Assembly (NCBI RefSeq): GCF_003790525.1
Contig: NZ_CP033635.1
Source: Escherichia coli
GTDB taxonomy: Bacteria > Pseudomonadota > Gammaproteobacteria > Enterobacterales > Enterobacteriaceae
Direction: 5' to 3' (one strand)
DNA: 64,000 nucleotides
This document shows, one piece after another, positions 2,936 through 40,159 of the stretch (positions are counted from its first letter, which is position 1; each line of letters begins with the position of its first letter). Position numbers and translations under genes: made by a program. The notes beneath the pieces are model-generated. The model was not told the origin of the DNA and searched no databases. It saw nothing but the letters and a program-made list of their open reading frames with translations.

Positions 2936-3798
<863 letters not shown>

Positions 3799-6020: not shown

Positions 6021-7688
6021 GTGGCTCAATTCGTTTATACCATGCATCGTGTCGGCAAAGTTGTTCCGCCGAAACGTCATATTTTGAAAAACATCTCTCT
6101 GAGTTTCTTCCCTGGGGCAAAAATTGGTGTCCTGGGTCTGAACGGCGCGGGTAAGTCTACCCTGCTGCGCATTATGGCGGGCATTGATAAAGATATCGAA
6201 GGTGAAGCGCGTCCGCAGCCAGACATCAAGATTGGTTACCTGCCGCAGGAACCTCAGCTGAACCCGGAACACACCGTGCGTGAGTCCATTGAAGAAGCGG
6301 TTTCTGAAGTGGTTAACGCTCTGAAACGTCTGGATGAAGTGTATGCGCTGTACGCCGATCCGGATGCCGATTTTGACAAGCTGGCCGCTGAACAAGGCCG
6401 TCTGGAAGAGATCATTCAGGCTCATGACGGTCATAACCTGAACGTTCAGCTGGAGCGTGCGGCTGATGCGCTGCGTCTGCCGGACTGGGACGCGAAAATC
6501 GCTAACCTTTCCGGTGGTGAGCGTCGTCGCGTGGCGTTGTGCCGCCTGCTGTTGGAAAAACCAGACATGCTGCTGCTCGACGAACCGACCAACCACCTGG
6601 ATGCCGAATCCGTGGCCTGGCTGGAACGCTTCCTGCACGACTTCGAGGGTACCGTGGTGGCGATTACCCACGACCGTTACTTCCTCGATAACGTTGCAGG
6701 CTGGATCCTCGAACTTGACCGCGGTGAAGGTATTCCGTGGGAAGGCAACTACTCCTCCTGGCTGGAGCAGAAAGATCAGCGCCTGGCGCAGGAAGCTTCA
6801 CAAGAAGCGGCGCGTCGTAAGTCGATTGAGAAAGAGCTGGAGTGGGTACGTCAGGGAACTAAAGGCCGCCAGTCGAAAGGTAAAGCCCGTCTGGCGCGCT
6901 TTGAAGAGCTGAACAGCACCGAATATCAGAAACGTAACGAAACCAACGAACTGTTTATTCCACCTGGACCACGTCTGGGCGACAAAGTGCTGGAAGTCAG
7001 CAATCTGCGTAAATCCTATGGCGATCGTCTGCTGATTGACTCCCTGAGTTTCTCGATCCCGAAAGGGGCGATCGTCGGGATCATCGGTCCGAACGGTGCG
7101 GGTAAATCGACCCTGTTCCGTATGATCTCCGGTCAGGAACAGCCGGACAGCGGCACCATCACTTTGGGTGAAACGGTGAAACTGGCATCGGTTGATCAGT
7201 TCCGTGACTCAATGGATAACAGCAAAACCGTTTGGGAAGAAGTTTCCGGCGGGCTGGATATCATGAAGATCGGCAACACCGAGATGCCAAGCCGCGCCTA
7301 CGTTGGCCGCTTTAACTTTAAAGGGGTTGATCAGGGTAAACGCGTTGGCGAACTTTCCGGTGGTGAGCGTGGTCGTCTGCATCTGGCGAAGCTGCTGCAG
7401 GTTGGCGGCAACATGCTGCTGCTCGACGAACCGACCAACGACCTGGATATCGAAACCCTGCGCGCGCTGGAAAACGCCCTGCTGGAGTTCCCGGGCTGCG
7501 CGATGGTTATCTCGCACGACCGTTGGTTCCTCGACCGTATCGCCACACACATTCTGGATTACCAGGATGAAGGTAAAGTTGAGTTCTTTGAAGGTAACTT
7601 TACCGAGTACGAAGAGTACAAGAAACGCACGCTGGGCGCAGACGCGCTGGAGCCGAAGCGTATCAAGTACAAGCGTATTGCGAAGTAA
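6021..7688 (+). CDS. ettA: Energy-dependent translational throttle ABC-F ATPase EttA (YjjK)
   Basis: 555-aa ORF with two ABC cassettes (GLNGAGKST, GPNGAGKST; LSGGERRRV, LSGGERGRL). Confidence 0.95.
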   Translation: MAQFVYTMHRVGKVVPPKRHILKNISLSFFPGAKIGVLGLNGAGKSTLLRIMAGIDKDIEGEARPQPDIKIGYLPQEPQLNPEHTVRESIEEAVSEVVNALKRLDEVYALYADPDADFDKLAAEQGRLEEIIQAHDGHNLNVQLERAADALRLPDWDAKIANLSGGERRRVALCRLLLEKPDMLLLDEPTNHLDAESVAWLERFLHDFEGTVVAITHDRYFLDNVAGWILELDRGEGIPWEGNYSSWLEQKDQRLAQEASQEAARRKSIEKELEWVRQGTKGRQSKGKARLARFEELNSTEYQKRNETNELFIPPGPRLGDKVLEVSNLRKSYGDRLLIDSLSFSIPKGAIVGIIGPNGAGKSTLFRMISGQEQPDSGTITLGETVKLASVDQFRDSMDNSKTVWEEVSGGLDIMKIGNTEMPSRAYVGRFNFKGVDQGKRVGELSGGERGRLHLAKLLQVGGNMLLLDEPTNDLDIETLRALENALLEFPGCAMVISHDRWFLDRIATHILDYQDEGKVEFFEGNFTEYEEYKKRTLGADALEPKRIKYKRIAK

Positions 7689-27363: not shown

Positions 27364-28395
27364 ATGTCTGCATTTACCCCGGCAAGTGAAGTCTTGCTGC
27401 GTCACAGTGATGATTTCGAACAAAGCCGTATTCTGTTTGCCGGAGACTTACAGGATGACCTGCCCGCGCGTTTAGATACCGCGGCCAGCCATGCTCATAC
27501 CCAGCAATTCCACCACTGGCAGGTGTTAAGCCGCCAGATGGGGGATAACGCCCGTTTTAGTCTGGTCGCCACGGCGAATGATGTCGCAGATTGCGATACG
27601 CTGATTTACTACTGGCCGAAGAACAAACCGGAAGCCCAGTTCCAGTTGATGAATTTACTTTCTCTGCTGCCAGTGGGCACGGATATTTTTGTCGTTGGCG
27701 AGAACCGCAGCGGCGTGCGCAGCGCCGAGCAGATGCTTGCAGATTATGCACCGTTGAATAAGGTGGACAGCGCCCGTCGCTGTGGCCTCTATTTTGGTCG
27801 TCTGGAAAAACAGCCGGTATTTGATGCCAATAAATTCTGGGGCGAATATAACGTCGATGGCCTGACGGTCAAAACGCTGCCTGGCGTGTTTAGCCGCGAC
27901 GGTCTGGATGTCGGTAGCCAGTTGCTGCTCTCGACGTTAACCCCGCACACGAAAGGTAAAGTGCTGGATGTCGGCTGTGGCGCGGGCGTACTTTCGGTTG
28001 CCTTTGCGCGCCACTCACCGAAGATTCGTCTCACGTTGTGCGATGTTTCTGCGCCAGCAGTTGAAGCCAGCCGTGCAACACTTGCGGCCAACGGTATTGA
28101 AGGTGAAGTCTTTGCCAGCAACGTCTTTTCTGAGGTGAAAGGTCGTTTTGATATGATCATCTCCAACCCGCCGTTCCACGATGGGATGCAAACCAGCCTC
28201 GATGCGGCGCAAACGCTGATTCGCGGCGCGGTGCGTCATCTTAATAGCGGCGGCGAGCTGCGAATTGTAGCGAACGCCTTCCTGCCTTACCCGGACGTGC
28301 TGGATGAGACATTTGGCTTCCACGAAGTGATCGCGCAAACCGGGCGCTTCAAGGTGTATCGCGCCATTATGACCCGCCAGGCGAAGAAAGGTTGA
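27364..28395 (+). CDS. rsmC: 16S rRNA m2G1207 methyltransferase RsmC
   Basis: 343-aa ORF with SAM motif [11 protein letters not shown] and NPPFH. Confidence 0.9.
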
Positions 28396-28413
28396 GTATC
28401 CCGCCGCAAGCCT

Positions 28414-28565
<152 letters not shown>

Positions 28566-28695
28566 TGCACGTTAGTTTCCTGATGGACATTTTTCCAGCA
28601 ATTACACCTCCGGCGATAATTAACTATTGACGAAAAGCTGAAAACCACTAGAATGCGCCTCCGTGGTAGCAATTCTTTTTAAGAATTGATGGTAT

Positions 28696-28781
28696 GCGAA
28701 GGTGGCGGAATTGGTAGACGCGCTAGCTTCAGGTGTTAGTGTCCTTACGGACGTGGGGGTTCAAGTCCCCCCCTCGCACCA
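28696..28781 (+). tRNA. leuQ: tRNA-Leu (anticodon CAG), copy 1; 86 nt, one C shorter in the 3' C-run than the other copies
   Basis: GCGAAGGTGGCGGAATTGGTAGACGCGCTAGCTTCAGGTGTTAGTGTCCTTACGGACGTGGGGGTTCAAGTCCCCCCC-TCGCACCA. Confidence 0.9.
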
Positions 28782-28809
28782 AAAACCACGTTGATATTGC
28801 TCGCACTGG

Positions 28810-28896
28810 GCGAAGGTGGCGGAATTGGTAGACGCGCTAGCTTCAGGTGTTAGTGTTCTTACGGACGTGGGGGTTCAAGTCCCCCCCCTCGCACCA
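28810..28896 (+). tRNA. leuP: tRNA-Leu (anticodon CAG), copy 2; variable-arm variant GTTCTT instead of GTCCTT
   Basis: 87-nt tRNA-Leu sequence ending in CCA; one-base difference to copy 3 in the variable arm. Confidence 0.9.
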
Positions 28897-28930
28897 AACG
28901 AGGCGATATCAAAAAAAGTAAGATGACTGT

Positions 28931-29017
28931 GCGAAGGTGGCGGAATTGGTAGACGCGCTAGCTTCAGGTGTTAGTGTCCTTACGGACGTGGGGGTTCAAG
29001 TCCCCCCCCTCGCACCA
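28931..29017 (+). tRNA. leuV: tRNA-Leu (anticodon CAG), copy 3
   Basis: 87-nt canonical tRNA-Leu(CAG) sequence with encoded CCA end. Confidence 0.92.
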
Positions 29018-38083: not shown

Positions 38084-39106
38084 TCAGAAAGTAATTACAC
38101 CCTTAATCAACTCACGATTGTTAATCACATCACGTTCGTAGGTTTCTGCCAGCGTGGCGAACGGGTAGCGATGGGTTAACATCATGTCGGCAGTGATTTT
38201 CCCTTCCGCCATCAATCGACCGACTTTAGCGAAATCTTCCGGCGTGGCGTTGCGGCTGCCCATCATCGTCGTTTCTTTTTTATGGAATTCCGGATCGGAG
38301 AACTGCAACTCACCTTTAAACAGACCGACAAATACCACCGTGCCGCCGTGACGAATCAGATTTACGGTGTTATTCATCGCATGTTGATTACCTGTCGCGT
38401 CGATCACTTTCTGCGCCAGCGAACCACCAAACTGCGCCCGCAGCTGCGCGTCAAAATCTTCGGCTGACGGGTCCAGTACAGGTAATTCCAGACGCGTTGC
38501 CACATGTTCACGGCGCGCCGGACTGGTATCCGCCACTACCACCTGTGCGCCATCGGCTTTAGCGATTGCCGCCGCGCCCAGACCGATTGGCCCCGCCCCG
38601 ACCACCAGCACCTGCTCGCCGGGAGCAATGGCTGCACGACGCACCGCATGTGCGCTAATAGCGAAAGGTTCAATCAATGCTGCCGCCTGCGGGTCAATAC
38701 CGTCTGCGGGCAAAATGTTCGCCACCGGCACGCTCAAATACTCACTAAAACCACCATCCTGATGCACACCAATAACTGAAATTTTTTCACAGCAATTGGT
38801 ACGACCGCTTTTACATGCAGGGCATTGCTGACAGGCAACATAAGGGATCACAGCAACTTGCTGACCATTTTTAAGATCAGCAATATTTTTACCCAGCCCA
38901 ACAATCTCCCCACATATTTCATGGCCTAAAACACGTGGATAACTAAAAAATGGTTGATTTCCACCCCAGGCATGAATATCGGTACCGCAAATCCCGACAG
39001 ACTTAATTTTTATTAATGCTTCATTGTCACCCGGAATAGGTATCTCGCGTTGTTTCCAGACTAATTCTTTCGGCTGCTGGCAAATTAAATCATTCATCGT
39101 AGACAT
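38084..39106 (-). CDS. lgoD: L-galactonate oxidoreductase LgoD (YjjN), Zn-dependent alcohol dehydrogenase family
   Basis: ORF track 38084..39121; conserved start MSTMNDLICQQPKELVWKQREIP; motifs GICGTDIH and GAGPIGLG. Confidence 0.9.
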   Translation of the reverse strand: MSTMNDLICQQPKELVWKQREIPIPGDNEALIKIKSVGICGTDIHAWGGNQPFFSYPRVLGHEICGEIVGLGKNIADLKNGQQVAVIPYVACQQCPACKSGRTNCCEKISVIGVHQDGGFSEYLSVPVANILPADGIDPQAAALIEPFAISAHAVRRAAIAPGEQVLVVGAGPIGLGAAAIAKADGAQVVVADTSPARREHVATRLELPVLDPSAEDFDAQLRAQFGGSLAQKVIDATGNQHAMNNTVNLIRHGGTVVFVGLFKGELQFSDPEFHKKETTMMGSRNATPEDFAKVGRLMAEGKITADMMLTHRYPFATLAETYERDVINNRELIKGVITF

Positions 39107-39244: not shown

Positions 39245-40159
39245 ATGAGTCGCTCACAAAATTTACGCCACAATGTGATTAACCAGGTCATTGATGATAT
39301 GGCGCGGGGTCATATCCCTTCCCCACTTCCATCGCAAAGTGCGCTGGCGGAAATGTACAACATCAGCCGCACCACAGTGCGTCATATTCTCAGCCACTTA
39401 CGCGAATGCGGCGTCTTGACGCAGGTTGGAAACGATTATGTTATTGCGCGTAAACCTGACCACGATGACGGTTTCGCCTGTACTACCGCTTCAATGAGTG
39501 AACAAAACAAAGTGTTTGAGCAGGCTTTTTTCACGATGATAAACCAGCGTCAGTTACGCCCTGGGGAAACTTTTTCTGAACTGCAACTGGCGCGGGCCGC
39601 GGGTGTCAGCCCGGTGGTTGTAAGAGAATATCTTTTAAAATTCGGCCGTTATAATCTTATTCAAAGCGAAAAGCGCGGCCAGTGGAGCATGAAGCAATTC
39701 GATCAATCCTACGCCGAGCAGCTGTTTGAGCTACGCGAAATGCTCGAAACACATTCACTTCAGCACTTTCTCAACCTGCCTGATCACGATCCCCGCTGGC
39801 TGCAGGCGAAAACCGTGCTCGAACGTCATCGGCTACTGCGTGACAACATCGGCAATAGCTTTCGCATGTTCTCGCAACTTGACAGAGATTTTCACTCCTT
39901 ACTGCTTTCAGCTGCCGACAATATCTTTTTTGATCAATCGCTTGAGATCATCTCAGTCATCTTTCATTTTCACTATCAATGGGACGAAAGCGATCTTAAA
40001 CAGCGCAATATCATTGCCGTCGATGAGCATATGACCATTCTCAGTGCTCTGATTTGCCGCAGTGACCTGGATGCCACCCTTGCGCTCCGTAACCATTTGA
40101 ATTCAGCTAAACAATCAATGATTCGATCCATTAATGAGAACACGCGTTATGCTCATTAA
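39245..40159 (+). CDS. lgoR: GntR-family regulator LgoR (YjjM)
   Basis: 304-aa ORF with N-terminal GntR HTH (LPSQSALAEMYNISRTTVRHIL). Confidence 0.9.
   Translation: MSRSQNLRHNVINQVIDDMARGHIPSPLPSQSALAEMYNISRTTVRHILSHLRECGVLTQVGNDYVIARKPDHDDGFACTTASMSEQNKVFEQAFFTMINQRQLRPGETFSELQLARAAGVSPVVVREYLLKFGRYNLIQSEKRGQWSMKQFDQSYAEQLFELREMLETHSLQHFLNLPDHDPRWLQAKTVLERHRLLRDNIGNSFRMFSQLDRDFHSLLLSAADNIFFDQSLEIISVIFHFHYQWDESDLKQRNIIAVDEHMTILSALICRSDLDATLALRNHLNSAKQSMIRSINENTRYAH

Follow-up and report, generated by a model that had tools for sequence, protein, structure and literature searches.

A seven-C run in leuQ of an Escherichia coli leuQ-leuP-leuV operon: a candidate consensus artefact at a documented indel hot spot

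Three tandem tRNA-Leu(CAG) genes contained in a 64,000-nt stretch of Escherichia coli DNA (hereafter the window) are not identical to one another, which raises the question of whether their differences are peculiar to this genome and, where they are, whether they stem from mutation or from the assembly. A first-pass annotation had described two such differences, a missing C in the first gene and a C-to-T change in the second, and had taken the three genes to be identical in K-12. Alignment of the three genes recovered these two differences and no others, copy 1 being short of one C and copy 2 carrying T for C at position 28857, and the outer boundaries that had been assigned to the array, 28696 and 29017, proved exact.

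The leuQPV operon and the structure of its three tRNAs

The three genes make up leuQ-leuP-leuV, the ordinary three-gene leucine-tRNA operon of E. coli. ARAGORN detected three tRNA-Leu(CAG) genes on the + strand (28695/6-28780/1, 28810-28896 and 28931-29017), with rsmC upstream and yjjZ and fhuF downstream according to the annotation of NZ_CM142671.1, NC_000913.3 and NC_010498.1. This is the leuQPV layout, namely three tandem genes between rsmC and yjjZ/fhuF, with a K-12-like promoter and K-12-like spacers. A promoter-like site at 28627-28654 (+ strand) consists of TTGACG, a 16-nt spacer and TAGAAT, followed by the G+C-rich GCGCCTCC, with 10 of 12 matches to the consensus; alignment revealed the same sequence in K-12 MG1655, and the site is likely to drive the operon, in which case one sigma-70 promoter would serve the three tandem tRNA-Leu(CAG) genes. 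The stretch from rsmC to the leuQ promoter contains two matches to the REP-element-derived Rfam family naRNA4, one at 28474-28556 on the - strand (70.3 bits, above the gathering score) and a second, weak one at 28403-28445 (22 bits); both are intergenic REP repeats of the ordinary kind.

The first gene (28696-28781, + strand; ARAGORN; Rfam RF00005, 40.8 bits) corresponds in position to MG1655 leuQ (b4370) and measures 86 nt instead of the usual 87. Its C run, at 28767-28773 on the + strand, counts seven residues and leaves a one-base gap against copies 2 and 3, K-12 and SMS-3-5. The same copy 1 sequence is present in NZ_CM142671.1, where it was annotated by PGAP as an 86-nt tRNA-Leu. A 28-nt spacer (28782-28809, + strand, delimited by alignment to K-12) opens with AAAACC right after the encoded CCA, yielding the context CCAAAAACC, and leads to the second gene, the 87-nt tRNA-Leu(CAG) gene equivalent to MG1655 leuP (28810-28896, + strand; ARAGORN; Rfam, 48.5 bits), with a run of eight Cs at 28881-28888 (+ strand). 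After a further spacer of 34 nt (28897-28930, + strand, likewise aligned to K-12) comes the third gene, the canonical 87-nt tRNA-Leu(CAG) gene equivalent to MG1655 leuV (28931-29017, + strand; ARAGORN; Rfam, 48.5 bits), whose eight-C run occupies 29002-29009 (+ strand). According to PMC2190699, RNase P separates the pre-tRNAs of the leuQPV transcript independently of RNase E, and termination is Rho-dependent; the bases that follow the encoded CCA in the window begin as given there, CCAAAAACC for leuQ and CCAAACGAG for leuP. The neighbours, the promoter region, both spacers, leuP with its T, and leuV are all shared with leuQ-leuP-leuV of K-12 MG1655 (b4370, b4369 and b4368). Outside the leuQ run, just a few flanking positions differ from MG1655 over a 541-nt region, while the run itself counts eight Cs in MG1655 and seven in the window.

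All three copies display the CAG anticodon, the long variable arm, the A73 discriminator and the encoded CCA. In copy 2, the leuP-specific T at 28857 on the + strand (U48 in linear numbering) gives GTGTTCTT versus GTGTCCTT; in the 4-bp variable-arm stem (GUCC/GGAC) it changes the third pair from C-G to U-G, and pairing is thus kept as the G-U wobble that had been foreseen from the sequence. For copy 1, the first-pass annotation had considered a shortened T-stem or a shifted acceptor stem possible. The normal C8 run makes up the 3' strand of the T-stem (five Cs) and continues for three bases into the acceptor 3' strand, and loss of one C must indeed cost one base pair of this stack, leaving 6 + 5 or 7 + 4 pairs. 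The covariance model places the deletion in the acceptor 3' strand, and ARAGORN gives copy 1 a 7-bp acceptor only by starting one base early (U-1; 28695-28780). A 12-bp minihelix, made of a 7-bp acceptor on a 5-bp T-stem with its 5' end at G1, can be formed by copies 2 and 3 and not by copy 1, for which alignment of the three genes disclosed no compensating change elsewhere in the gene. Forced cloverleaf energies amounted to -32.7 kcal/mol for copy 3, -29.8 kcal/mol for copy 2, and -29.9 kcal/mol (6 acceptor + 5 T-stem pairs) or -29.6 kcal/mol (7 + 4) for copy 1. All three copies exceed the RF00005 gathering score of 29 bits. They are not, for all that, equally canonical, an equality that would have spoken against the first-pass annotation, as copy 1 scores 7.7 bits lower (40.8 bits) than copies 2 and 3 (48.5 bits each).

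The T of leuP and its distribution

Comparison across genomes indicates that the T at 28857 is the normal, conserved allele of leuP, which defines a second isodecoder one wobble pair apart, and that no special explanation is needed for it. The statement that the three genes are identical in K-12 turned out to be mistaken: in MG1655 (NC_000913.3), leuP has T where leuQ and leuV have C. Since MG1655 leuP carries the same T, only one of the two heterogeneities, the missing C of leuQ, is unusual for the window's genome. The error is understandable, because the legend to a figure of PMC2190699 also calls the three genes identical. A tRNA-seq preprint, for its part, groups (leuP) apart from (leuQ leuT leuV), and the K-12 leuP isodecoder shows the C-to-U change in the variable-arm stem exactly as in the window, without any difference.

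The T was also found in leuP of SMS-3-5, E22, UID2309220003 and NEB 5-alpha. Using an 85-nt query that joins the leuQ-leuP spacer to the T-bearing 5' part of leuP, we obtained 4,526 records with at least 99% identity from a collection of 5,426 complete E. coli genomes. The same query with C matched exactly in 130 of the 5,426 genomes, the C form being the minority allele. On metagenome contigs, all 30 leuP copies (30/30) carried the T. Beyond the species, the homologous operons of Klebsiella michiganensis and Enterobacter sp. have T in their middle gene; found at the same place in two other genera, the isodecoder must be an old one that has been conserved in its position. The first-pass annotation had implied that both differences are strain-specific and arose here from three originally identical genes, a reading to which we attach practically no credence. 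It can draw on those parts of the literature that call the genes identical, but it conflicts with the T of MG1655 and of the four other E. coli genomes named above, with the 4,526 matching records and the metagenome leuP copies, with the middle genes of K. michiganensis and Enterobacter, and with the minority standing of the C form (130 genomes). For the leuP T itself, a strain-specific origin is refuted by the identity with MG1655 and by the 4,526 records.

Several further observations were made on this allele. A leuP-type U is also present in the gene at the leuT position of K. michiganensis DSM 25444. The 130 genomes with C in leuP, which have three identical genes, include a coherent O55:H7 group (checked in CB9615), where the C looks like the product of gene conversion between copies. 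A re-assembly of MG1655 (CP025268) shows C in leuP together with nine Cs in leuV, which looks like a polishing artefact.

The seven-C call in the window's clade and in public genomes

The length of the leuQ run was followed in the same collection, which consists of complete RefSeq E. coli genomes and from which the window's own genome is absent. The nearest relative therein is SMS-3-5 (NC_010498.1), which differs from the window by 6 substitutions and 1 indel over 64,000 bases. This sole indel is the missing C of leuQ, the run being 8C in SMS-3-5, and direct inspection revealed 8C in leuQ of E22 as well. With a 24-kb query, the eight best matches tied in score, and each of them spans one base more than the query. 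As far as these alignments reach, the leuQ C7 is private to the window within its clade. The G/C homopolymers of eight or more residues in the window are the three C8 runs alone, the other runs of that length being two A8.

The substitutions that separate the window from SMS-3-5 are located at 3407, 18538, 27491, 34714, 39090 and 39815, and five of the six are transitions. All five that could be polarised (5/5) are derived in the window. Four of the private substitutions are nonsynonymous (YjjX Y154H, RsmC R43H, LgoD V6D and LgoR M191V) versus two synonymous, and the four variant proteins, encoded at 2948-3460, 27364-28392, 38087-39106 (- strand) and 39245-40156, match exactly two NCBI records each (AYW33471.1, AYW32114.1, AYW32123.1 and AYW32124.1; RLY48872.1, RLY48627.1, RLY48617.1 and RLY48616.1). 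Because these variants recur in two separate NCBI records, the data suggest that the private SNPs of the window, and hence its long private branch, are real, and that its strain was probably deposited twice, once as a closed genome and once as a draft. The change at 27491 was found in 0 of 5,361 genomes, and thus does not recur there as a systematic error might. Two of the substitutions, 27491 G>A and 39815 A>G, sit on the R of CCRTGCTC, an 8-mer that occurs three times in the window (nominal P ~3e-8, for a motif chosen post hoc). A basecalling error at a methylation motif was considered for these two SNPs and not adopted, in that CCRTGCTC contains no Dam or Dcm motif, the two changes run in opposite directions, and the allele at 39815 occurs naturally in other lineages. 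As for the idea of a mutator strain, 5 of the 6 private SNPs are transitions and the ratio of indels to SNPs fits mismatch-repair-defective spectra, with numbers too small for a test. In repair-defective strains, A:T-to-G:C changes are favoured in the 5'-NAC/GTN context; neither of the window's two A:T-to-G:C changes lies in such a context. Beyond the differences that it shares with SMS-3-5, E22 (NZ_CM143899.1) departs from the window in ways of its own in the 24-kb stretch, having lost one base of a CCC and gained a single substitution, at the equivalents of 31995 and 32040; singleton differences of this kind are common among near-identical assemblies.

Outside the clade, the seven-C call recurs. 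In a search with 541 nt, NZ_CM142671.1 gave the only 100% match, and because its flanks are ~1.1% divergent from those of the window, this genome is an independent 7C carrier. The impression of a near-singleton left by the 541-nt search was abandoned, since flank polymorphism had masked the other carriers. Counts were therefore made by exact match, with E-value cut-offs that admit perfect full-length matches only (for leuQ-7C, an 80-nt query and a cut-off of 1e-32). The leuQ-7C sequence, comprising the run and the spacer, was present in 152 of the 5,426 complete E. coli genomes, from unrelated lineages; leuP-7C, searched with a synthetic query, in 141; and leuQ-9C in 24. For leuV-7C the count was at least 6 of 5,426, a lower bound that is not comparable with those of leuQ and leuP, as the downstream flank included in the query is polymorphic. 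Both leuQ-7C and leuP-7C were found in the same assembly in at least 18 cases, a minimum drawn from 60 listed carriers of each set, against 3.9 expected if the two were independent (hypergeometric P = 5e-8), and in strain 504239 each of the three genes reads 7C.

Carriers of 7C cluster by submission batch, as seen for many CDC STEC genomes (CP027xxx range), USDA RM strains of O145 and New England Biolabs strains; the UID23092200xx series contributes two more. The 9C calls are batch-clustered too, with seven CP195xxx and eight CP0748xx records. Further carriers include DHB4, ER1709, C3029, NEB5-alpha F'Iq and T7Express Crystal. Laboratory strains are informative because the sequence of their ancestor is known: K-12 NEB 5-alpha (CP017100), which was assembled from PacBio RSII reads with HGAP3 only (PMC5105096), reads 7C, 7C and 8C where MG1655 reads 8C, 8C and 8C. 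In terms of deposition date, ~43% of evenly sampled leuQ-7C carriers fall in accessions up to ~CP0357xx, which we take to be a small fraction of the collection and to date from the same period as the AYW and RLY accessions. By our estimate, leuQ-7C is several times as frequent in assemblies of the AYW/RLY period as in later ones.

In a set of 100,044 species-representative genomes, 4 showed the 7C pattern, all of them long-contig assemblies, and two of these have several copies affected. In K. michiganensis DSM 25444, three of four copies are 7C. In Enterobacter sp. EA-1 (CP025776.1, region 6050-6370), 7C occurs in all three tandem copies along with further internal deletions, and ARAGORN detects one gene of the three, a tRNA-Leu state that would look lethal if real. 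In Kluyvera YDC799, the three tRNA-Leu genes measure 86, 84 and 85 nt. The damaged tRNA-Leu genes of EA-1 and Kluyvera are signs that indel-rich assemblies are in use as species references. On metagenome contigs, which are mostly derived from short reads, 91 of 94 C runs were 8C; the deviants were a 7C at a contig end with 2.6x coverage and, on a single 2.2-Mb contig, the leuQ and leuV runs, each of which counts 9C. When leuQ and its spacer were considered on 36 such contigs, there was one 7C and one 9C, all others being 8C.

Overall, miscounting at the leuQ C8 run is frequent, batch-clustered and assembly-specific in public genomes. The co-occurrence across copies and the laboratory-strain carriers are our reasons for regarding most public 7C calls as artefacts.

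Origin and significance of the leuQ call

With a confidence only a little better than even, we favour the view that the leuQ 7C of the window would be an artefact of the assembly consensus and that the true run would be 8C. A one-base undercount of the eight-C homopolymer would arise at consensus calling, and the organism would carry a normal 87-nt leuQ; the window's genome would thereby be one more case of the pattern seen in public records. The call has the features of such an artefact, in that the C8-to-C7 change is absent from near-identical relatives and recurs across assemblies, copies, batches and re-sequenced strains. PacBio-only assemblies are known for systematic single-base deletions in G/C homopolymers (PMC8574707), and the likeness to errors of long-read-only assemblies (PMC8574707; CP017100) extends to the kind of change, a single-base deletion in a G/C run, and to the very same leuQ 7C call in CP017100, although in the window one of the three runs is affected. 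A homopolymer assembly error had already been raised as a possibility by the first-pass annotation. It stands as a serious one, given that precisely this miscount is common and specific to assemblies and not to strains, as the 152 carriers, the co-occurrence and the laboratory strains attest, but it is not the sole mundane explanation, as the C8 run is a documented hot spot of real indels (PMC8510543). Against an artefact, moreover, copies 2 and 3 of the window read 8C although the sequence around their runs is the same, over more than 70 nt on the upstream side and 9 nt on the downstream side, and there is no other indel in the window, so the assembly is not generally indel-prone. The occurrence of the private protein variants in two NCBI records suggests, in addition, that the SNPs and with them the long private branch are real.

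The main rival, to which we give a substantial chance that nevertheless falls short of even, is that the 7C is real and reflects a recent -1 replication slippage within the eight-C tract of leuQ, by which one of four redundant genes would be crippled. The product is modelled with an 11-bp instead of a 12-bp acceptor/T-arm stack, as either a 6-bp acceptor with G7 unpaired or a 4-bp T-stem. From what is generally known of tRNAs, such a molecule would probably be a poor substrate for processing or charging, or would not be well retained, and its loss would be tolerated, as leuP, leuV and leuT supply the same anticodon. In mismatch-repair-defective mutation-accumulation lines, the 8-G.C run of leuP/Q/V/T accounted for 95 of the 117 indels of all tRNA genes, with 23, 29, 25 and 23 indels per gene in that run, or about 24 per run, against genome-wide totals of 30,061 substitutions and 5,324 indels and a substitution frequency of 6.5e-3 per nt (PMC8510543). 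From these figures we computed that indels in the run are ~3,700 times as frequent as substitutions per nucleotide. The run is the foremost indel hot spot among E. coli tRNA genes in such lines, the window's indel at 28767-28773 falls in its leuQ copy, and the counts in mutation-accumulation lines imply that run-length mutants arise readily and are viable. The hot spot described by the Foster laboratory (mBio 2021, PMC8510543) concerns the same genes, the same run and the same class of one-base length change as the window; the laboratory indels are verified mutations in repair-defective lines, whereas that of the window is a candidate mutation. Slippage would also suit the private branch, which is rather long at 6 SNPs per 64 kb and on which the scaled ratio would predict, if neutral, ~0.3 real indels per run and ~1 across the three runs, the ratio being one from repair-defective cells that may not transfer to the wild type. 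That one of three identical contexts was hit, with no other indel in 64 kb, that two NCBI records share the private protein variants, and that the Rfam score falls by 7.7 bits while the cloverleaf goes from -32.7 kcal/mol (leuV) to about -29.8 kcal/mol, all fit a mutation of this kind as well. It is opposed by the assembly-specific character of most public 7C calls (co-occurrence across copies, laboratory strains, batches), by the absence of 7C from all of the window's near-identical relatives, and by the retention of 8C in 97% of genomes despite a very high mutation rate of the run, which argues that 7C is selected against. A more elaborate proposal takes the 7C as real and the C8 tract as a hypermutable contingency locus that would reversibly tune the dosage of the genes for the major leucine tRNA, tRNA-Leu(CAG), or the 86-nt tRNA as a functional variant with altered properties. 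The hypermutability of the run (PMC8510543), the occurrence of 7C or 9C variants in a few per cent of assemblies per copy, and a score of copy 1 that is still above the Rfam threshold could be taken in its favour. We nevertheless regard it as very improbable, as the carriers listed form no coherent clade, the variants follow sequencing batches and include laboratory strains, on metagenome contigs of mainly short-read origin 91 of the 94 runs count eight Cs, about 97% of genomes keep 8C, the C8 is explained by structure (five T-stem pairs and three acceptor positions), and copy 1 is without a compensating change. Were there such a dosage switch, a few per cent of natural E. coli would, at any moment, have one silenced or altered Leu(CAG) gene, and their capacity to decode CUG would be affected.

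Earlier work has documented each of the elements involved, from the leuP isodecoder and the indel hot spot at the C8 run to the miscounting of homopolymers in long-read assemblies, and nothing in the window is new in this respect. Whether it is a consensus artefact, as we prefer, or a slippage mutation, the 7C is not an evolved feature. If real, it would be one more mutation at a published hot spot that inactivates one of four redundant genes. Its meaning is mainly that of a caution: about 3% of the E. coli genomes labelled 'complete' have the C8 run miscounted at any given one of the four tRNA-Leu(CAG) genes, and annotation pipelines still report the 86-nt product as a normal tRNA-Leu. As a result, tRNA sets that are compared gene by gene will show isodecoder diversity that is spurious.
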